A DNA stretch of 24,668 bases. It comes from an uncultured Prolixibacteraceae bacterium. Lineage in GTDB: Bacteria > Bacteroidota > Bacteroidia > Bacteroidales > FEN-979. Location: the NCBI GenBank assembly GCA_964624935.1, contig CAZUYY010000001.1, positions 5,775 through 30,442 of the forward strand. The letters are read 5' to 3'. Each line of letters opens with the position of its first letter. The stretch's first letter is position 1. Below the pieces are notes generated by a model. That model was not told the origin of the DNA. It did not search any database and was given only the letters and a program-made list of their open reading frames with translations. Shown one piece after another: positions 6 through 23,077 of the stretch. Both the position numbers and the translations under genes were made by a program.

Positions 6-3000
6 CTATTTATCAACCTTCACCCTTATTCCTTCCGAATGTGCGCCAAATTCAGGAGCATATATACATTGTACTGTTGTAATGCCATTGGAGAATTCCC
101 CGGCTGCATTCACAATAAGCGGGTATTCAAAAATCCATGTCCCTTTTGGAAGGTAATCAAAGAAAAAGTTCGTTGCAACATCCGTCGTGGATTGATAATA
201 ACCCAATCCTCCCTGATAACGATAACCCGATAACTGTTCAGAGGTTGGCGGTTCGAATGCTGATGCCCTCATATCTTTCATGTGAACAAATTCCAGATTC
301 CGGTCAACGGAAATGATGATTCTTACAATGATCCTATCCCCTACTCTGATATCCTCACTTGATCCATTTTGTCCCTTCGTAATTTGTAATTCGTAATTCG
401 TAATTGGTTCAAGAACTTTCCCTTTTCCTGTCACTCTTTCAATGAACAGTTTCTTCTCAATTTTTAGCGGAGTCTGGTGTGGTGTGATCTTGTCAAGATC
501 TTCAAAATATTGCCAGTAAAGAGCTCCCCAGGCAATGCCTTCATTGGATTTGGAGACCGTGACATTTCCCATCTCAGGGTTGATTTCCTTTCCATCACGA
601 AATACCTGGAAATAACCAGTGCCTGCTTCTACTTTGGTATCTGTTAATTTCAGGGGATCAATCCTTTCTTTTCCCAAATCGATTTTTATTTCCGGCTGCA
701 CCGAAAGAAGATTAGTTCCCCTGAGGAGCAATGCATAACAGGCTTCAGCCGTAGCACGTCCTGTTTTCCAGTCCTGAGTCTGTTTTTGTTTCAGTAACCA
801 AACTTTCATATCATCGACCGGCTTCGGATCGGCAGTAATTTCTTCATAGGCCTCGATCATAAGTGCTTGTGTTTCTATTGGAGCCTGGTACCATTTATAG
901 CCATTTTGCGAAGCCCAATACATTCCCATTTCCGGAGAATGAAGAGCTTTTTCGGAAAGCGATTTAAGGATAGCGTCAGGGACGGTCTTGTTTCCCAGAC
1001 GGTTTAGCGCTAAAGCAATCATTCCCTGGAAATAAGGATCATTCTGTAGCCAGTATTTTTCTGCCTGCTCCAGGAAATAATGAAAAGCTGTATTCACTTC
1101 AACCTTGTTTTTTATAACCGGAATATCATTGAAATAATAGCTTCGGGCATAGAGGTACTGGATTTGGGTTGCACCGAGATGATTTTCATCTATCTTTTCC
1201 GGATACAATCTTATGATGTCGTTATAATCTTTTACGAGTTCTCCATCAAGATATTCTACTGCTTTGTTCAATATAATCCAGGTATCCTTGTCATCCCTGA
1301 TATTTTTAATTCCAAGATGATCGAGATGCCCGAGACCAGTTACGATATTCTGTGTGATATAGCGGCTTTCCTGCATTCCATCGAACCATGGCCATCCGCC
1401 GGAAGGCGCCTGCATTTTTTGCAGCTTTTTCAGATTCTGATCAAGCTTTGCTTCCATGTTATTCCGGTCGAAAAACAAAGCCAGCCGGTGTTTCCGTTGC
1501 GTTTCGTCCTGTGCTTCCATTACCCAGGGTGTCTCCTGCAAAAGTGTTGATTTCAATTGTTCATTTTTAATCAGGTTTGACACCAATGCATCAGTTGAAA
1601 TGGTTTTCCAGCTTTCGAAGACTTGTTTAATCGCCGGGTTGGAATTCGCAAGAAAGAACGCAATGCTGTTGGTATAATAAGAATTAAAAATATTATCTGC
1701 GTTGGGATATTGCGGATCATCCATGGTTGGCAGTGCTTGTACGGCATACCATACCGGATTCGATGCAAATTCAAGGGTCAGCTTATAATTCTTCAGGGTC
1801 TTGTCCGCAGAAGAATTCAGCAATTTATCAAATTTGAAATCAAAAGTGCCTTTATCATTCACAGGAAGTGGCAGGGATTCTGTCACCAGCATGCGGTTTG
1901 TCAGGACAGGGAAGGCTTTTTCTTCCCCATCACTGAAATCACCCGCCCTGGCGGTGATTCGATACTGGAGAAGTGAAAGGGATGGATCGTTTGGAATGGC
2001 CAGCTTCCACTGGAATGCTGAACTTTGCCCGGTAAGCAGGGTAAAGGCCTGGTTTTGATTGTCTGAAATCACAAGGTTGACGGTTTTTTGCGAAAGTGCA
2101 TCCGATAGTTCCAGCACCACTTCTCCGTTCAGAGCACGCTCACTAAGGTTAACCACTTTTGCGCTGAAGATAAGTGTATCGCCCTGGCGGACAAACCGCG
2201 GTGCATTCGGAAATACCATCAGGTCTTTATGGGTAATAACCTCTTTTTCAGTCAGTCCATAATCCAGTTGTTTAGTATAGGCGAACCCGAGAATTTTCCA
2301 TTTGGTAAGGGATTCAGGCACGGTGAATTTCATATCAAGATTTCCTGCCGAATCGGTGACCAGTGAAGAAAAGAAGAATGCTGTTTCCCGGAAATCCTTT
2401 CTTATCTGCACTGTTTCTTGAATTTCGACTTTAGGCGTTTGTTTTTTCTCTTCCGTCTGGCTCACCAGGTGTTCAGTCATACCATCTTTTGGTTGAGCGG
2501 ATGTGGTTGAAATTACTTCTGGTTGTGGTTGTCCTGAAGATAAAGTACCGGCTAACATCGGAGTGTACAATTTCCCACCGCCAAGCCTCCGGTCACTTCC
2601 ACCGAAACCCAATCCGAACCAATTTAATTTTTCATAGGAATGTGAGATATATTCCCCACTGGTAAAATGCAACGGATAATATACCCCTGACGTGGTGTTG
2701 AATCCCCCGCTGACTTCCCAGGGAAGCGAAGAATAATATTCCTTTAAAACCGAAAACGCCCATTTATTGGACTTAAACGCATCTAAGGATGCATCATACA
2801 TGGCTGTAAGATATTCAGCAATTACGCCTTTTTTTGCGGCATCGCTGATCCTGATCCTCCATTCTTCATTCTGTCCGGGATTGATTTTATCACGAAACGT
2901 GTCAAATTTGATGTCCAGCTTCTTGTTGTTAAAAGGAACACGTACCAACACGTTATGCTGGAAAGACCTGTTTAACCTGATAAATATAAAATTCACTGAA

Positions 3001-6000
3001 AAATTACCGCGGAATTGTTCCTGTATCGGAATCTCCACCAATTCCTGGTTATTGCTGAGCTTTATCCATTGTCTTGAATAAAGCGTATCATGAACCCTGA
3101 TCTCATATAAAACATTGACATCCTCTGCTTTTGAGCCGATCAGGAATTCAGCCTTCTCCCCGGGTTCTCCACTTGTTTTCACCGGAACAAACCAATCCAT
3201 TTCCTGCACAGGTATTCGTGCAGAGGAAGGATCATAGATCACAAAAGGGATCCTTTGTTCAACATCTTCACCAAAAGGATCCTTTGCTTTCAGGGTTAGC
3301 AGATAGTTTCCTTCCGGAAGTATCTTTCCATTCCCCATCCTCCAATCTCCATATACCGACTTTGCTGCAATCTGTGAAAACCGAAATATGGAATCTGTCG
3401 CTGTATTGATATCTTTTTTCAGGATTTCCTGGTCAACCGGCCAGTTGATCACGATATTTTCATCCGCATAAAGGTCGTTTGGGAAATCGGAATGAAATTC
3501 CTTTTCTGTCATGCCCGTCATATCGGGTTTATCCCATAAACGCTTTCTGTAAAACCGGTCTGGTTGTTTCAGTTTTTGAATGTTCAGGGTGACGGCAGTG
3601 GGTGTTTTCCTGCCATTTAAATTAGTAGCCGTCAGGTGAAATACTGTATCTCTTGCAGGATCAAGATTCCCGGGAATATCCATACCCAACAAAAGAGAAA
3701 CATATCCCACGGAGACATTTTCGTTTGAAGATTGTGTTTCTCCATTGATATCGGTCACATCAGCATAAATCATATAATCGAAAACCGGTTTTGTTGATTT
3801 TTCGAACGAAAGATCAGGAACTGCTTTGAACTTTAACTTAAAGCTGCCATCAGCACTTGTTTTCGACATGCCCTGCATGATTTCAGTTTCTGTAACCGGG
3901 TGTACAGGCATCCACCAGCCACTTTCCCAAAAAGGAAATCGTGCCGAACGCACTACCCTGTATTTTACGTCTGCGCCATTAATGTTAATTCCTGCATATG
4001 CTATAGCTTTCCCTGTTACTGTCACACTGTCGTTCAGATGATAATTTCCTTCAATGGGATCGAAAGTAACTTCAAAGGTTGGACGTTTATATTCTTCAAC
4101 GGAAAATGTCACTGAACCTGAACCATCCGAAAGTTTCATGGTTCCTGGCAGCAATCCTTGCGGGATCTCAAAAGACCCGTTAAAGGAACCAAATTCACTG
4201 GTGGTGAAAGTTTGTTCAGCAATCTTTTGATCATTTACATCGGTAAAGTTCACAGTGATCTTTATTCCTGGTTTAATGTTATGGATATCAGCAGTTTCTT
4301 CGATAAGAACACCTTTGAAATAAACAGTTTGTCCAGGCCGGTAAATTCCCCGGTCTGTGAAAAAGAATGTTTTCAGGGTCGTTTTTTCATTGGGTTCGTT
4401 TACAGGATAACGGTAATAATATCCTGTCACCAGGAGGTCGTCTTTTAACTTTAAACGAAGGAACACGTTATTGTTGGATCCATTCTGCAGGACAGCAGGC
4501 AGTAAAAAATGACCATTTTCATCGGTTACATACTCCCCTGACTTCTGATTCTCAGACTTTCTTGTAGTGTAGTCGAAAACATTACGAAAGGCTTCTGCCG
4601 TAAGGCCATTCAGCGGAAGTCCGGTTTCCCTGTCGAGGATATAGAAATCTTCTTCACTTTTTTCATTCCGCTGGCTGATGTAACTGATCCGGGTGGAAAA
4701 GAAAGGCACCCAGGCAATAACCTGGCCGGTATCTTTAAAATCCGGGAAAGAAGATGCGATTAGAATATAATATCCGACCGGTAACCCGGGTATGCGTATC
4801 TCCATCCGGTGTGACTGGTAATCTCCATCGTTGGGAAGGTTTAGCGACCAATCCTTTTGAAATTCAAGGCTGGAGTAGTAAGATATCTGTTCTTCCCTCG
4901 GGCGGTTTAGGGTTCTTTCCTTGTCGATATCCGGGTCTGATTTTGCAAGCCTGAAATAGAGGGTTTTCATATTCCTGAATTCGATCACTCCGAGAGATGG
5001 TTTTTGGGGCACGACAGCATGTTCAGTTTCAATTTGCAATGCAGGTTTTTCAATATCGGCAGCCAGTAGCTTGCAATTGGCAGCCCCTACGCTCTCAGGA
5101 AATCGTTTTTTTGCCTGGTTGCAATAATCAATTGCTTCCTTTAATTCCCATTTATGTCTTTGTGATTCGGCAGGATGGTACTGCGATCCCTGTTCCTTCA
5201 GATAAGCAGCAATTGCATAGGTAACATCGGTGGAATATGGCGATGAAAGACTGGTTTGTTCCAGCTTTTTCATGGCATTCAGATACAAAGTGTCTTTCCC
5301 ATCCATCATGGATTTATCCTTCAGGAATTGAAAACGATGGATTTCTTCATCGATCAGTGCATGAGGATCTTTATCTTGGCAGTGAAAGCCCGCAAGATCC
5401 TGGTAGATCTTCAACGAAAAGGCAAGAAATGAGGAGGAATCTGAAGGTAATTCCAGCTTCAAAGCAGCGAATTCACGTGCCTGTGAGAAATACGACGGTT
5501 GATTGAGTGAAAAGGGGATAGCAACTGCCTTATCCGGGCTTTCATTTCCGGAGAAATATTTTAGTACACGCCAGCATAAAAAGTCGTACAGTGTAGGCCG
5601 GTAGCTGGTCTTGTTTTTCTCCATCATTTTTACAGGTTGCTTTCCCTGTGATTCCGGCTTTTCAAGTATATCTTCAAAGGAGCCGATCGGCAAAGATTTT
5701 AACAGAGACGGATCCTGAATTGAGAGCAGCCAGGTTTTTACTGTTTTTCGGGCCAGGGTTTTCAGATCCCAGGTCTGAATGCTATCGGATGTGGTATTCA
5801 TGACTTCTGTTCTGTTTCCAAACCGGTAGCGGTTATTCAGGTAATACGACTGATACATCTCAGCCAGAATGGAATTCAGGATTTGACGGGCCGGTTCATG
5901 TGATCCTTTGATCTCAGCATTGACTTCCCTGATGGATAATGCTACGGCATCTTCCATAAAATCTGCTTTCAGTTTCAACCTATAAATGAAAGCCTTGATA

Positions 6001-6260
6001 TACTGAGGATCATTCTTCTCTTTCTTTGCCTGGTCATAGATTGTATTCACGATCTCCAGGGCCGATTTAGGAAGACCCAGGTTTGACAGGGAATCGACTT
6101 TTTTCCACCGAAATGAATAATAATTGGAGAGCTGGTGAGGTGGCGAAATATTTAATTGGTGAACTGGTGAACTGGTGAACTGGCGAGTAAGATCAAGGGC
6201 AAAGATGGAAGAACATCTTAGTAAAAAAATAAACCCAAAGATCACAGGTTTTGTTTTCAT
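6..6260 (-). CDS. Bacterial alpha-2-macroglobulin family protein (MG2 domains, bait region, A2M C-terminal region), secreted; no CxEQ thioester motif
   Basis: About 2084 aa. A2M-family segments include FFFTDRGIYRPGQTVYFKG (MG2), FSVEEYKRPTFEV, IRKDFRETAFF, FTVPESLTKWK, LMVFPNAPRFVRQGD and YIYAPEF-like CIYAPEFGAHS. The ORF track starts at 6284; ATG 6260 (MKTKPVIFGFIFLL...SSIFA) gives a cleaner signal peptide, so the start is inferred. Confidence 0.93.
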   Translation of the reverse strand: MKTKPVIFGFIFLLRCSSIFALDLTRQFTSSPVHQLNISPPHQLSNYYSFRWKKVDSLSNLGLPKSALEIVNTIYDQAKKEKNDPQYIKAFIYRLKLKADFMEDAVALSIREVNAEIKGSHEPARQILNSILAEMYQSYYLNNRYRFGNRTEVMNTTSDSIQTWDLKTLARKTVKTWLLSIQDPSLLKSLPIGSFEDILEKPESQGKQPVKMMEKNKTSYRPTLYDFLCWRVLKYFSGNESPDKAVAIPFSLNQPSYFSQAREFAALKLELPSDSSSFLAFSLKIYQDLAGFHCQDKDPHALIDEEIHRFQFLKDKSMMDGKDTLYLNAMKKLEQTSLSSPYSTDVTYAIAAYLKEQGSQYHPAESQRHKWELKEAIDYCNQAKKRFPESVGAANCKLLAADIEKPALQIETEHAVVPQKPSLGVIEFRNMKTLYFRLAKSDPDIDKERTLNRPREEQISYYSSLEFQKDWSLNLPNDGDYQSHRMEIRIPGLPVGYYILIASSFPDFKDTGQVIAWVPFFSTRISYISQRNEKSEEDFYILDRETGLPLNGLTAEAFRNVFDYTTRKSENQKSGEYVTDENGHFLLPAVLQNGSNNNVFLRLKLKDDLLVTGYYYRYPVNEPNEKTTLKTFFFTDRGIYRPGQTVYFKGVLIEETADIHNIKPGIKITVNFTDVNDQKIAEQTFTTSEFGSFNGSFEIPQGLLPGTMKLSDGSGSVTFSVEEYKRPTFEVTFDPIEGNYHLNDSVTVTGKAIAYAGININGADVKYRVVRSARFPFWESGWWMPVHPVTETEIMQGMSKTSADGSFKLKFKAVPDLSFEKSTKPVFDYMIYADVTDINGETQSSNENVSVGYVSLLLGMDIPGNLDPARDTVFHLTATNLNGRKTPTAVTLNIQKLKQPDRFYRKRLWDKPDMTGMTEKEFHSDFPNDLYADENIVINWPVDQEILKKDINTATDSIFRFSQIAAKSVYGDWRMGNGKILPEGNYLLTLKAKDPFGEDVEQRIPFVIYDPSSARIPVQEMDWFVPVKTSGEPGEKAEFLIGSKAEDVNVLYEIRVHDTLYSRQWIKLSNNQELVEIPIQEQFRGNFSVNFIFIRLNRSFQHNVLVRVPFNNKKLDIKFDTFRDKINPGQNEEWRIRISDAAKKGVIAEYLTAMYDASLDAFKSNKWAFSVLKEYYSSLPWEVSGGFNTTSGVYYPLHFTSGEYISHSYEKLNWFGLGFGGSDRRLGGGKLYTPMLAGTLSSGQPQPEVISTTSAQPKDGMTEHLVSQTEEKKQTPKVEIQETVQIRKDFRETAFFFSSLVTDSAGNLDMKFTVPESLTKWKILGFAYTKQLDYGLTEKEVITHKDLMVFPNAPRFVRQGDTLIFSAKVVNLSERALNGEVVLELSDALSQKTVNLVISDNQNQAFTLLTGQSSAFQWKLAIPNDPSLSLLQYRITARAGDFSDGEEKAFPVLTNRMLVTESLPLPVNDKGTFDFKFDKLLNSSADKTLKNYKLTLEFASNPVWYAVQALPTMDDPQYPNADNIFNSYYTNSIAFFLANSNPAIKQVFESWKTISTDALVSNLIKNEQLKSTLLQETPWVMEAQDETQRKHRLALFFDRNNMEAKLDQNLKKLQKMQAPSGGWPWFDGMQESRYITQNIVTGLGHLDHLGIKNIRDDKDTWIILNKAVEYLDGELVKDYNDIIRLYPEKIDENHLGATQIQYLYARSYYFNDIPVIKNKVEVNTAFHYFLEQAEKYWLQNDPYFQGMIALALNRLGNKTVPDAILKSLSEKALHSPEMGMYWASQNGYKWYQAPIETQALMIEAYEEITADPKPVDDMKVWLLKQKQTQDWKTGRATAEACYALLLRGTNLLSVQPEIKIDLGKERIDPLKLTDTKVEAGTGYFQVFRDGKEINPEMGNVTVSKSNEGIAWGALYWQYFEDLDKITPHQTPLKIEKKLFIERVTGKGKVLEPITNYELQITKGQNGSSEDIRVGDRIIVRIIISVDRNLEFVHMKDMRASAFEPPTSEQLSGYRYQGGLGYYQSTTDVATNFFFDYLPKGTWIFEYPLIVNAAGEFSNGITTVQCIYAPEFGAHSEGIRVKVDK
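376..403 (+). repeat. Heptamer tandem array (TTCGTAA)x4, inside the A2M CDS
   Basis: TTCGTAA TTTGTAA TTCGTAA TTCGTAA; translated on the - strand as ITNYELQIT. Confidence 0.85.
3323..3357 (+). repeat. Degenerate heptamer array (period 7, units ending in CC), inside the A2M CDS
   Basis: TCTTTCC ATTCCCC ATCCTCC AATCTCC ATATACC; - strand GGTATAT GGAGATT GGAGGAT GGGGAAT GGAAAGA, translated as VYGDWRMGNGKI. Confidence 0.55.
6125..6190 (+). repeat. Octamer array family A (TGGYGANN), inside the A2M CDS
   Basis: TGGAGAGC TGGTGAGG TGGCGAAA TATTTAAT TGGTGAAC TGGTGAAC TGGTGAAC TGGCGAGT AA; the 8-nt register holds over 64 nt. Confidence 0.9.
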
Positions 6261-6320: not shown

Positions 6321-7136
6321 TTATTTCGAAGAACCAACCAGCGAAGTAACCGGGTTGGCGAGTCCTTTGTACTCGATCAGTTCAAGTTTCACTGATCCTA
6401 TAGTGACGTCTGATTTTGCGAGGACCGGGATGCGGTTCTGATCGTCAGTAATCCAGACATCCATTGGATAGGGTTGGCTGAATACATAACCCGTCGCTAC
6501 CATTGGTTTAAATTTCAAACAGCGGAACGTTCCAAGGTCGGTTTGTACTTCTTCACGTCCGGCAAATTCAATCAGGGAGACATACATTGAATCGTCGAGA
6601 ACGAAGTCCACAGGAAAACGCTCTCCAATTTTGAGATTGGAGAAATCAAGCGTCCGGCAATAGAAAAATGCAGAAAGAATATCATAGGTGCCAACATTCA
6701 TTTTTTTGTTAGCCTTACGGCTTGAATAATTTCCTGAATATTGATTGAAACGTATTTCATCATTCACTGAGTAACTGCCCTCATGTGTATTTCTGATAAA
6801 CAACCATGGGACGAGATATTCTTCATCCATGTATGATTCAAAACAGTCGTTGACCTTATAAAAAAGGTTAAATGCACCTTTCGATTTTCCTTCACCGATT
6901 ATGTGAAAAGTACTTCGTCCATCGAATATTTTATCCTCAAATTTAACTTCCAGCGAAGCCAGGCCGGCTGTGACTTTCCCGGTCACAAAAGAATCATAAT
7001 ATGCTTTAAATCTCAACCTTTCTCCCCGGATGAATGCAGTATTCCGGACAGGAGTCAATGATTGGGCAGGAAGAATGAAAAATGAAGAATGAAAAATGAA
7101 AAATACAATTAACAGGAAACGGCAAACAGGCTTCAT
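6321..7136 (-). CDS. DUF3108-like periplasmic/secreted protein
   Basis: 271 aa with a signal peptide. The segments FIRGERLRFKAYY, VQTDLGTFRCLKFKP and DVWITDDQNRIPVLAKSDVTIGSVKLEL match my recollection of Bacteroidota DUF3108 proteins. The ATG is 1 nt after the leuS stop. Confidence 0.75.
   Translation of the reverse strand: MKPVCRFLLIVFFIFHSSFFILPAQSLTPVRNTAFIRGERLRFKAYYDSFVTGKVTAGLASLEVKFEDKIFDGRSTFHIIGEGKSKGAFNLFYKVNDCFESYMDEEYLVPWLFIRNTHEGSYSVNDEIRFNQYSGNYSSRKANKKMNVGTYDILSAFFYCRTLDFSNLKIGERFPVDFVLDDSMYVSLIEFAGREEVQTDLGTFRCLKFKPMVATGYVFSQPYPMDVWITDDQNRIPVLAKSDVTIGSVKLELIEYKGLANPVTSLVGSSK
7074..7101 (+). repeat. Heptamer tandem array (AATGAAR)x4 in the DUF3108-like signal peptide
   Basis: AATGAAA AATGAAG AATGAAA AATGAAA; translated as FFIFHSSFFIL. 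Confidence 0.85.
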
Positions 7137-7137
7137 T

Positions 7138-9951
7138 TCAAATCACAATGTTGATTATTTTTTTCGGCACCACGATTATATTTCTGGGAGGTTTGCCCTG
7201 AAGCCATTTCTCAGTTTCAGGGGCTTTCAGCACAGCTTGTTCGATCGCAGATACCGTAAGGTCAAGCGAAAGTTCCAGTTGGAACCGCATTTTACCATTA
7301 AACGAAACCGGGTAATGAAAAGTATTCTCAATAATATATTCTTCAATAAATTCGGGAAAAGGAGCATAGGTTACAGACCCGGAATGTCCTGAATGTTCCC
7401 AAAGTTCCTCAGCTAAATGCGGAGCATATGGCGCGATCAGGATCACAAGGGGCTCAAGGATTGCCTTTTTATTACATTTTAACTCAGAAAGTTCGTTCAC
7501 ACAGATCATGAAGTTTGAAACGGCTGTATTGAATGAAAACCATTCGATGTCTTCCTGGGTCTTCTTTATGGTCTTATGGAGGATCTTAAGCTCATCTTTT
7601 GTCGGTTCTTCACCGGTCACAGAAAATTCATTTTCCCGGTCATGGTACAACCTCCAGAATTTGCGTATAAAACGGAATACCCCTTCAATGCCGTTGGTGT
7701 CCCATGGCTTCGATTGCTCCAGCGGACCGAGGAACATCTCATAAAGCCTGAGTGTGTCAGCTCCGTAATGATCGATCAGGTCATCGGGATTCACCACATT
7801 ATGAAGTGATTTCGACATTTTTTCTATTTCATACCCGCAGATGTATTTCCCATCTTCGAGAATAAATTCAGCATCTGCAAGATCGGGACGCCAGTTTTTA
7901 AACGCAGCAAGGTCGAGCACATCATTCTCCACGATGTTTATATCGACATGCATTTCCGTTGTTTCGTAATCCTTTCTCAGATTATAAGAGACGAAAGTAT
8001 TTGAGTTTTTAACCCGGTAAACAATATTCGAGCGTCCCTGGATCATTCCCTGGTTGATGAGTTTCTTATAAGGTTCATCTTTACAAACCAGTCCGATATC
8101 GTAAAGAAACTTATTCCAGAACCTTGAATAGACCAAGTGTCCTGTGGCATGTTCGGCACCGCCAAGGTAAAGGTCAACATCCTGCCAGTATTGGTTGGCT
8201 TCTTTTGAAAAATATTCTTTATCGTTGAGGGGATCCATATAGCGAAGATAGTACCCGCTCGACCCTGCAAAGCCCGGCATGGTGCTTGTTTCGTAAGGAT
8301 AACCTTCTTTCGTCTTCCAGTTTTTGGCACGGGCCAGTGGTGGCTCGCCGGTTTCTGTCGGAAGATATTTATCCACTTCCGGCAACAGCAGTGGCAGTTC
8401 GGATTCATCCAGAACATAGGCAGTGCCATCCTTGTAATAAACCGGGAAAGGTTCGCCCCAATAGCGCTGACGGCTGAAGATGGCATCACGGAGACGGAAA
8501 TTCACAGTCCCTTTGCCTATCTTTAATTCTTCTACCTTGCGGATGACTGCCGAAACGGCTTCTTTCACATGCATTCCATTGATGAATTCCGAATTCACCA
8601 GTATCCCGTCCTTGGCATCATAGGAGCTTTCTGAAATATCCCCTCCGGAAACTACTTCAATAATGGGCAGATTGAAATGCTTTGCGAAATCATAATCCCT
8701 GCTGTCGTGAGCCGGAACTGCCATGATAGCGCCGGTTCCGTAACCGGCAAGCACATAATCGGCAACCCAGATTGGGATCTTTTTACCGTTCAGTGGATTA
8801 AGGCAGTAAGCGCCGGTAAATTCACCGGTGACTTTTTTAACTTCTGCCATCCGTTCACGTTCTGAACGGTTCTTTGCCCAGTGAAGGTAATCCTTTACAG
8901 CAGGTAGTTGCACCTGAGTCGTAATGGCTTCAATGAGTTCATGTTCGGGTGCAATGACCATAAAGGTCGCCCCGAAAATTGTATCGGGCCGTGTTGTAAA
9001 AATATCCAGTTTGTAATTTGTATTTTCAATGGGAAATTCAATTTCAGCCCCTTCTGAACGACCGATCCAGTTCCTTTGAATCTCTTTCAAAGATTCAGTG
9101 AATTCTATTTTATCGAGTCCTTCCAGCAGACGTTGTGCATAGGCGGTAATACGTAAAAACCACTGGCGCATGAGTTTTCGTTCAACAGGATGGCCTCCGC
9201 GAAGTGAGACCCCATTGGAAACCTCATCATTGGCAAGAACAGTACCCAGTTCCGGGCACCAATTCACCATGGCATCGCTCTGGTAAGCGAGTCTGTAATT
9301 CATCAGAAGTTCCCGCTGCTCTTTTACAGGAAAGGATTTCCATTGAGCGGCAGTAAAAATGCCGTTCCAGTTAACGCCGAGAAAAGGATATTTATTCCGG
9401 AAGCCTTTGAACCAGTCGGTCGTCATAGCTGCATGAACTGTTGCATTTCCTGAAGATTCAAAAACGCTGATTAGGCTATCAATTGATTCTGCTCTTTGCG
9501 TTTCTAAATTGTACCAGTGATTGAAGAGCTGAATAAAAGTCCATTGCGTCCATTTATAATATCCCGGATCACAGGTCTTGACTTCACGATCCCAGTCATA
9601 AGAAAACCCGATCTTATCCATCTGTTCACGGTATCGTGCAATATTCTTTTCCGTAGTGATGGCGGGATGGGTGCCGGTTTGAATAGCATATTGCTCGGCC
9701 GGCAGTCCGAAAGCATCATATCCCATGGGATGCAAAACATTGAATCCCTTCAGCCTTTTGTACCGTGAATAAATATCAGATGCAATATATCCCAAAGGAT
9801 GCCCCACATGCAGACCTGCTCCGGAAGGATAAGGAAACATGTCGAGGACATAGAATTTCGGTTTTGAAGAGTTGTTATCTGCTCTGAATGTTTTATTCTT
9901 CATCCAGTATTCCTGCCATTTTTTCTCGATCTCTGAAAAGTTATACTCCAT
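7138..9951 (-). CDS. leuS: Leucine--tRNA ligase
   Basis: Class I aaRS motifs: [19 protein letters not shown] (HIGH), EKMSKS (KMSKS), editing-domain [13 protein letters not shown] and [15 protein letters not shown]. Start placed at ATG 9951 (MEYNF); the ORF-track extension to 9996 is a translated repeat array. Confidence 0.98.
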
Positions 9952-9958
9952 GATTAGG

Positions 9959-9993
9959 TGGTGAAGTGGTGTAGTGGTGAACTGGCGAGTTAA
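9959..9993 (+). repeat. Octamer array family A in the leuS 5' leader
   Basis: TGGTGAAG TGGTGTAG TGGTGAAC TGGCGAGT TAA. Confidence 0.9.
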
Positions 9994-10032
9994 CAATTGA
10001 TAAATGCCAGTAAACCACTTGCAATTTTTCTG

Positions 10033-18671: not shown

Positions 18672-18676
18672 AGACG

Positions 18677-18708
18677 TGGTGAACTGGTGATGTGGTGATG
18701 TGGTGAGT
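18677..18708 (+). repeat. Octamer array family A between convergent genes
   Basis: TGGTGAAC TGGTGATG TGGTGATG TGGTGAGT TT. Confidence 0.9.
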
Positions 18709-23038: not shown

Positions 23039-23042
23039 TAAC

Positions 23043-23077
23043 TGGTGACCTCGTGAATTGGCGAAGTGGCGAGTTAA
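23043..23077 (+). repeat. Octamer array family A
   Basis: TGGTGACC TCGTGAAT TGGCGAAG TGGCGAGT TAA. Confidence 0.88.

Follow-up and report, generated by a model that had tools for sequence, protein, structure and literature searches.

We analysed a 24.7-kb stretch of DNA (24,668 nucleotides, hereafter the window) from an uncultured Prolixibacteraceae bacterium, in which a gene of the alpha-2-macroglobulin family contains, shortly after its start codon, an array of 8-nucleotide (nt) units that is translated as part of the protein. Its product matches four Pfam families, all over the cut-off (i.e. PF01835, MG2; PF07703, bait-region; PF00207, A2M; and PF17973, bMG10). The CxEQ thioester motif was not found in its 2084 residues (searched as C.EQ), and the protein is a thioester-less member of the family, which has no bearing on the repeat. 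The gene and the features at its 5′ end are as follows:

6..6260, minus strand: alpha-2-macroglobulin family gene, 2084 aa, with MG2, A2M_BRD, A2M and bMG10 domains
6198..6260, minus strand: region coding for the putative signal peptide (MKTKPVIFGFIFLLRCSSIFA); orthologues conserve MKTKPVILGF..., and AlphaFold2 gives a helix at residues 7–15
6186..6188, minus strand: ACT 'head', directly 5′ of the first unit
6122..6185, minus strand: octamer array, eight units in one register, of which the fifth, AAATATTT, is degenerate

Read in the sense direction (minus strand, 6188–6122), the array is ACT CGCCAGTT CACCAGTT CACCAGTT CACCAATT AAATATTT CGCCACCT CACCAGCT CTCCAATT, followed by ATTATT, and it starts 73 nt downstream of the macroglobulin ATG. 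The same array, shifted by 3 nt relative to the sense register, reads TGGAGAGC TGGTGAGG TGGCGAAA TATTTAAT TGGTGAAC x3 TGGCGAGT on the plus strand (6125–6188), with TAAT before each of two sub-arrays (6121–6124 and 6153–6156). An initial annotation, made from the letters of the window, had described these TAAT-preceded sub-arrays in exact 8-nt register, together with the position and translation of the array (MKTKPVIFGFIFLLRCSSIFA/LDLTRQFTSSPVHQLNISPPHQLSNYY); both descriptions agree with the window sequence and its translation. Tandem Repeats Finder (TRF), run on the window, reports 6157–6183 as a period-8 repeat of 3.4 copies with 100% matches, and the window contains the family 13-mer CACCAGTTCACCA (at most two mismatches) 12 times where 0.37 would be expected; none of 100 shuffles reaches 12. 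Head-to-tail units of 5–11 nt in runs longer than chance, which characterize dispersed short-unit tandem repeats, are present. The purity of the array is low, with six different unit sequences among the eight and no more than three identical units in succession. When folded, the sense RNA of the 5′ region was no more structured than expected by chance (z = -0.33), with the array left unpaired; a structured-RNA reading was dropped on this result.

The coding properties of the unit depend on its orientation. In the sense direction, (CACCAGTT)n is stop-free and encodes an identical cyclic octapeptide, HQFTSSPV (rich in S, T, P, Q and H), in all three frames because 8 and 3 share no factor. Its antisense contains TGA in every frame, and therefore only the observed orientation of the array is possible inside a gene.

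The macroglobulin product begins MKTKPVIFGFIFLLRCSSIFA-LDLTRQFTSSPVHQLNISPPHQLSNYYSFRWKKVDSL, and the array encodes approximately residues 24–45 (TRQFTSSPVHQLNISPPHQLSN) of the precursor. By inspection, the putative Sec-type (type I) signal peptide consists of MKTK, a hydrophobic PVIFGFIFLL and SSIFA; in orthologues it ends in ...SLFAQ or ...SLSAQ. The Cys of LLRC in this region is not conserved and does not form a canonical lipobox. About 120 homologues were found, the closer of which conserve the MK(T)KP start and a hydrophobic signal peptide as well as eight invariant columns in W52–A67, just past the array; the stretch between signal peptide and W52 varies in length and sequence among them. 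A true start downstream of the array was considered and rejected: the first in-frame candidate (GTG, V71) would lose the invariant W52–A67, and the MKTKP signal peptide is conserved. Because such a start would delete an invariant segment, the start is placed upstream and the array is translated. This upholds the claim of the initial annotation that the array makes up the N-terminal part that follows the signal peptide, and disposes of the downstream start, one of the two refuting conditions that it had named.

An AlphaFold2 model of residues 1–331 (59-sequence alignment; mean predicted local distance difference test score (pLDDT) 84, predicted template modelling score (pTM) 0.80) has no secondary structure at residues 18–40 (pLDDT <50) and a confident all-helical domain from about residue 42 (pLDDT >90). 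The model suggests that the array encodes a disordered linker between the signal peptide and the first helical domain. S, T, P, Q, L and H account for most of the linker residues across the clade. The first ∼330 residues make up an all-helical domain, predicted at high confidence, that lies outside the four Pfam matches, the first of which begins at residue 639. Separately, a 201-nt contig of metatranscriptome run X13 matches the gene at 5540–5740 with one mismatch (array not covered), which hints that the macroglobulin gene is transcribed in the environment.

Length alleles and inheritance of the array

We compared array alleles across 14 sequencing runs, examined as Logan assembled contigs, and across orthologous loci of relatives. 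The four closest alleles have common flanks (ACT ... ATTATKC) and contain 5 (L083), 8 (L082), 8 (window) and 11 (lake metagenome X4) units, so that unit number varies between strains and relatives; they differ solely by 24-nt steps, i.e. three units. The 11-unit allele lies on an 11.4-kb contig of a ∼95%-identical sister strain and differs from the window array by a single 24-nt insertion behind 6129 and eight point changes, with more in the flanks; the reading frame is maintained (...LTRQFTNSPVRQLSNPPTNQLTTSPPHQLSNYY). A contig with zero differences from the window spans the array in run X2 (record 9), an independent wetland sample of 2018. Runs X5, X6, X7 and X12 yielded no further array alleles. 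All of the ∼45 listed orthologues are called full length and in frame, and no frameshifted allele was found among those in the assembled contigs, which drop rare variants. The idea that only frame-preserving length changes in a tolerant position survive is thus borne out by the series of 5, 8, 8 and 11 units and by the linker's predicted disorder in the AlphaFold2 model.

At the same position, proteins of the closest clade contain the octapeptide SSP[VTI][HR]Q[LF][TA], or one like it, in one to five copies, each of which is exactly three octamers. The DNA of eight orthologous loci (L081–L084 and L165–L168), at which synteny is conserved (ftsX, leuS, DUF3108, A2M and aspS), was then compared. 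All eight have octamer-periodic DNA at the array site, with CCA every 8 nt and ∼3 to 16 units:

L081: 16 units of the CGCCARCT type
L084: ∼9 units
L082: 8 units, uninterrupted, with the same flanks as the window
L083: 5 units
L167, L168 and L165: 3–5 near-perfect CACCAGTT units
L166: CAATTAT heptamers, then octamers

The possibility that orthologues carry the same peptide without nucleotide periodicity can thus be set aside, as the peptide occurs together with the octamer period. In farther orthologues without the array, the signal peptide directly joins a conserved WKKVDSL (e.g. P0029, P0034 and P0053–P0057). On a FastTree tree of 900 residues from this anchor, just past the linker, the motif is present nearly throughout a 25-row clade, has a patchy distribution among the 44 rows of a wider clade and is missing beyond it, with at least eight state changes. 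Protein identity to the window is 65–87% in the 25-row core clade and 53–58% in the deeper branches with a patchy array, and some orthologues inside the clade have an eroded array or none (e.g. P0025, P0028 and P0014). On these sequence comparisons, the array at the macroglobulin site is old, or recurrent, and able to erode. The statement in the initial annotation that insertions also hit coding DNA does not hold for a recent event in the window genome, given an octamer array at the same site across the 25-row clade and, patchily, in deeper branches.

Among the matches listed in a metagenome contig scan, full-length relatives were at most 58% identical and almost none had the array; a genome contig scan gave only two close relatives, L001 and L002. 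Unit variants seem to co-vary within genomes at coding and intergenic sites (CGCCARCT in L081 and L084, with CACCAGTT in the others), but the arrays are too few for this to be taken as evidence.

The repeat family in the window and its relatives

The octamer family is present at four loci in the window. Besides the macroglobulin array, these are:

9956..9987, minus strand: octamer array CGCCAGTT CACCACTA CACCACTT CACCACCT, with its end 4 nt upstream of the true leuS ATG (9951–9949)
18674..18707, minus strand: octamer-family array in the spacer between convergent genes
23040..23071, minus strand: fourth, more degenerate octamer-family array CGCCACTT CGCCAATT CACGAGGT CACCAGTT, preceded by AACT

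Assembler word depth, summed over all contigs of four metagenomes, is 145 at 6157–6188 versus 4.8 beside it, and the contigs stacking there continue into many different flanks; this combination of pile-up and flanks points to a dispersed family. TRF finds ∼105 arrays of period 6–11 in 244 kb of close relatives (∼1 per 2.3 kb), mostly outside long open reading frames (ORFs).

The array at 9956–9987 is read through by an over-long TTG ORF of leuS, whose true start is at MEYNF. The LTRQFT peptide that had been noticed in a spurious leuS extension is indeed present in the TTG extension, and the macroglobulin and leuS 5′ arrays are of the same family. In L081, L082, L084, L167 and L168 the leuS array occupies the corresponding position. 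An octamer array at this position (9949–9996 in the window; leuS genes of L081–L084 and L166–L168) makes gene callers and ORF finders extend leuS in the upstream direction (921 to 1000 aa in relatives; 952 aa for the TTG ORF of the window).

By our tally, ∼20 of the 27 octamer-family arrays in the window and close relatives start with ACT, which is followed by the first C(G/A)CCA unit. This start gives the arrays a common polarity, which is not predicted by slippage alone. The ACT usually follows an A/T run (6186–6188, 9988–9990 and 23072–23074 in the window), and several arrays end in ...CCAATT. In relatives, octamer-family arrays of the opposite orientation lie where plus-strand genes (aspS and a 124-aa gene) end, at the 3′ end or overlapping it; there the TGA-containing strand is sense and may supply the stop codon:

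L084:16605-16636, opposite-orientation array
L081:18682-18713, opposite-orientation array
L167:18535-18566, opposite-orientation array

A replication-oriented element similar to Chi sites was also considered, as the units resemble GCTGGTGG and all four window arrays lie on one strand; it was set aside since relatives carry family arrays of both orientations at neighbouring loci.

When 1.84 billion representatives were searched by phmmer with the array peptide of L081, 100 matches were obtained, most of them <300 aa. A quarter of these (25 of 100) have two or more SPx[HR]Q[LF]-type units in succession, and one protein has as many as 11 octapeptide units (33 octamers). In a Pfam scan of ten matches, eight had no domain, one an unrelated eukaryotic domain and one a sub-threshold match to a disordered repeat. 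Octamer arrays are thus widespread in metagenomes and often mis-called as ORFs; their presence in other real proteins is not implied.

Two further in-frame repeats of the macroglobulin gene, both heptameric and mentioned in the initial annotation, also exist:

377..404, minus strand: heptamer array ATTACGA x4, in frame, encoding ITNYELQIT in a C-terminal loop
3325..3352, minus strand: degenerate heptamer array ATGGAGA TTGGAGG ATGGGGA ATGGAAA, i.e. (ATGGRRA)x4, encoding YGDWRMGNGK in a mid-gene loop

The mid-gene array falls below the TRF threshold in the window, and L167 and L168 do not have the loop segment. In nearly all close orthologues the C-terminal loop contains an in-frame heptamer array, the family of which differs by lineage (ATTACGA in the window, AGTACGA in L165, AAGTACA in L168 and GCATCCA in L167). 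In L165 and L166, a CACCAGTT octamer array with an ACT or ATT head adjoins these heptamers and encodes LTSSPVHQFTSS. The C-terminal-loop arrays in relatives are located at:

L165:8249-8313
L166:15859-15914
L167:15846-15878
L168:15877-15903

In the neighbouring DUF3108 gene, the signal-peptide region is itself a heptamer array in every close relative, with units that vary from one relative to another (ATTTTTC, CATTGCT, CATTCTT, CATTTTT and CGTATGT):

Window, 7070-7103: DUF3108 heptamer array
L081:9083-9115; L082:9039-9068; L083:9048-9075: DUF3108 heptamer arrays
L084:7645-7683; L167:8493-8524; L168:9162-9190: DUF3108 heptamer arrays

In L166, the region upstream of leuS contains a DDE transposase and a ParE-toxin gene (L166:3015-5984); at this place the closest relatives (L081–L083) and the window have ftsX.

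Origin and maintenance of the array

We consider it likely that the macroglobulin array is an inherited, coding-embedded copy of a clade-wide family of 7–8-nt repeats that gains and loses units, with the frame kept by selection, and that it encodes a linker. The family would fill the majority of intergenic spacers, and a small number of tolerant positions in coding DNA, in a clade of uncultured Bacteroidales from peat, wetland and lake, and may be assigned to the long simple sequence repeats (LSSRs) with 5–11-nt units or to repeats resembling short tandemly repeated repetitive (STRR) sequences. The array would have been inherited rather than recently inserted, between a putative Sec-type signal peptide and the first predicted helical domain. 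Whole units would be gained and lost, most likely by replication slippage or unequal exchange, and selection for the frame of the 6.2-kb ORF would let through only net changes of three units (24 nt, eight residues) or compensated changes, a pattern seen in the alleles. Such an array may be tolerated since its sense strand is stop-free and yields the same peptide in every frame, the opposite orientation being barred by TGA. The encoded peptide is most likely a flexible spacer of variable length and nothing else.

Several observations weigh against this account. Slippage is deduced from differences in unit number and was not directly observed, and the degenerate unit AAATATTT cannot be derived from a normal unit via few point changes. 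Slippage alone also leaves unexplained (i) the sharing of the ACT-C(G/A)CCAGTT head by many loci and (ii) the different repeat families at the C-terminal loop in different lineages. Furthermore, the consensus CACCAGTT is retained in genomes whose macroglobulins are only 53–58% identical to that of the window. These points lend some weight to a different origin, which we regard as unlikely: the 7–8-nt arrays could be products of an active, sequence-specific copy-paste process, e.g. fork stalling and template switching between array loci. Such a process is suggested because (i) the ACT-C(G/A)CCAGTT head and the consensus unit are common to unrelated loci in genomes with ∼55%-identical proteins; (ii) arrays of different families adjoin; (iii) tolerant loops have been colonised repeatedly, by ATTACGA, AGTACGA, AAGTACA or GCATCCA and in two lineages also by CACCAGTT; and (iv) the window allele has a 24-nt gain with a non-repeat-like octamer. 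If true, this process would continuously remodel the linkers and loops of exported proteins.

Another suggestion is that the macroglobulin array combines two separate copies, each added by copy-paste (e.g. template switching between array loci), instead of being one array with a decayed unit. This we hold to be very unlikely. It corresponds to the 'two successive additions' of the initial annotation, which stands in so far as each sub-array has the head and tail of a stand-alone array: each starts with CGCCA and ends in ...CCAATT then A, as in L168 (CGCCAGTT CACCAGTT CACCAATT), and several intergenic arrays end in ...CCAA(T/C)T AATAT..., resembling the sub-array junction. The 24 nt by which the window allele exceeds its sister L083 include the non-repeat-like AAATATTT, and octamers lie beside C-terminal-loop heptamers in L165 and L166, while the loop of L167 has a different heptamer family (GCATCCA). 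What speaks against the suggestion is the sharing of both sub-arrays and the spacer unit with the X4 sister strain, which leaves nothing recent, and the 8-nt register, which is unbroken across the spacer; L082 has eight uninterrupted units between the same flanks. No donor locus for CCAATTAAATATTT was found in ∼3.3 Mb of sequence.

The octamers could also be a functional cis element, i.e. binding sites or an unstructured C/A-rich leader near gene starts, with the macroglobulin peptide as a by-product. The consensus unit and ACT head are conserved over diverged genomes, the end of the leuS array lies 4 nt upstream of the ATG, with relatives also having an array just upstream of leuS, and the sense RNA of the macroglobulin array is unpaired at z = -0.33, all of which would suit such a role. 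The macroglobulin array begins 73 nt past the ATG, however, which does not suit it. This position is outside the typical initiation footprint. Unit number and sequence also vary freely, the array is eroded or absent in P0025, P0028 and P0014, and in relatives some family arrays follow stop codons and some are inverted. We therefore consider a cis element unlikely, although TAACTGA heptamers directly upstream of start codons have been put forward as sites at which a post-transcriptional regulator acts (PMC4679880).

Phase variation seems to us highly improbable. Here a change of one or two units would shift the frame after the signal peptide and switch the macroglobulin off or on, as in a contingency locus such as the Neisseria opa genes with their CTCTT repeats. 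The array has a unit length that is not a multiple of three and lies in the 5′ coding region, unit number differs between strains, and simple sequence repeats (SSRs) are enriched near N-termini according to Lin and Kussell (2012), as cited in PMC4692102. However, a contingency locus is also expected to have a long, pure tract of high slippage, whereas this tract is impure, with at most three identical units in a row and six unit sequences among eight. The four closest alleles differ by 24-nt steps only, the allele in an independent sample is identical, and the ∼45 listed orthologues are full length and in frame, as are both strains; the on/off switching proposed in the initial annotation finds no support in these data. 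As the same family lies beside housekeeping genes (leuS) and its arrays fill spacers generally, the family as a whole is no switch.

Relation to known repeats and significance

In the Neisseria opa genes, phase variation is driven by CTCTT SSRs in the region coding for the leader peptide, in long, perfect tracts in which single units are gained or lost within populations. The macroglobulin array is similar in that its non-triplet unit lies in the 5′ coding region and the protein is exported, but the tract is short and impure and varies only by three units among the alleles found. STRR heptamers have reportedly been described in cyanobacteria by Mazel and colleagues in 1990. LSSRs and STRRs resemble the present family in their head-to-tail 7–8-nt units, with few families at many, mostly intergenic, loci near gene ends, in a unit number that varies between strains and in having no established function; by contrast, the octamer copy considered here is intragenic and translated, and its 8-nt unit is kept in frame across the clade by three-unit steps. 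LSSRs with 5–11-nt units were surveyed by Mrazek, Guo and Shah (2007), and in that survey, as summarised in PMC4679880, units with a length that is a multiple of three are the likeliest in coding regions.

Direct repeats of the heptamer TAACTGA occur in Beggiatoaceae, cyanobacteria and some Bacteroidetes (MacGregor 2015, PMC4679880). As at leuS, they form arrays directly upstream of start codons, stop codons in one orientation limit their placement inside genes, and tolerated in-frame copies at protein ends are considered in that paper too. The window unit differs in length and sequence, and its in-frame copy is orthologously conserved and variable in length, with a peptide predicted to be disordered. 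The G-rich heptamer repeats of Xanthomonas (GGGAATC) and Nostoc (GGGGAYT; Rehm et al. 2015, PMC4692102) are also dispersed 7-nt arrays, typically of ∼4 units and ≤50 bp from ORF ends, and in coding DNA they are under-represented. They can form G-quadruplexes, whereas neither strand of the CACCAGTT unit contains a G-run, and no structure beyond chance is found in the sense RNA. A literature search found no description of the CACCAGTT family in Bacteroidales.

In brief, the class of repeat is known, and what is particular here is a non-triplet unit that is in frame across a clade, changes by three-unit steps only and gives the same peptide in every frame. The octamer array reveals no new mechanism or regulatory system. 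For the annotation of metagenome-assembled genomes of Bacteroidales, it follows that N-terminal repeat peptides of the SSPxHQ(L/F)T type can be genuine and that octamer arrays also produce spurious 5′ extensions, as for leuS. For the biology of the family, the array suggests how a non-triplet tandem repeat can persist in a gene over the long term: its unit has no stop codon and yields one and the same peptide in each frame, it lies in a predicted disordered linker and only changes of three units survive.

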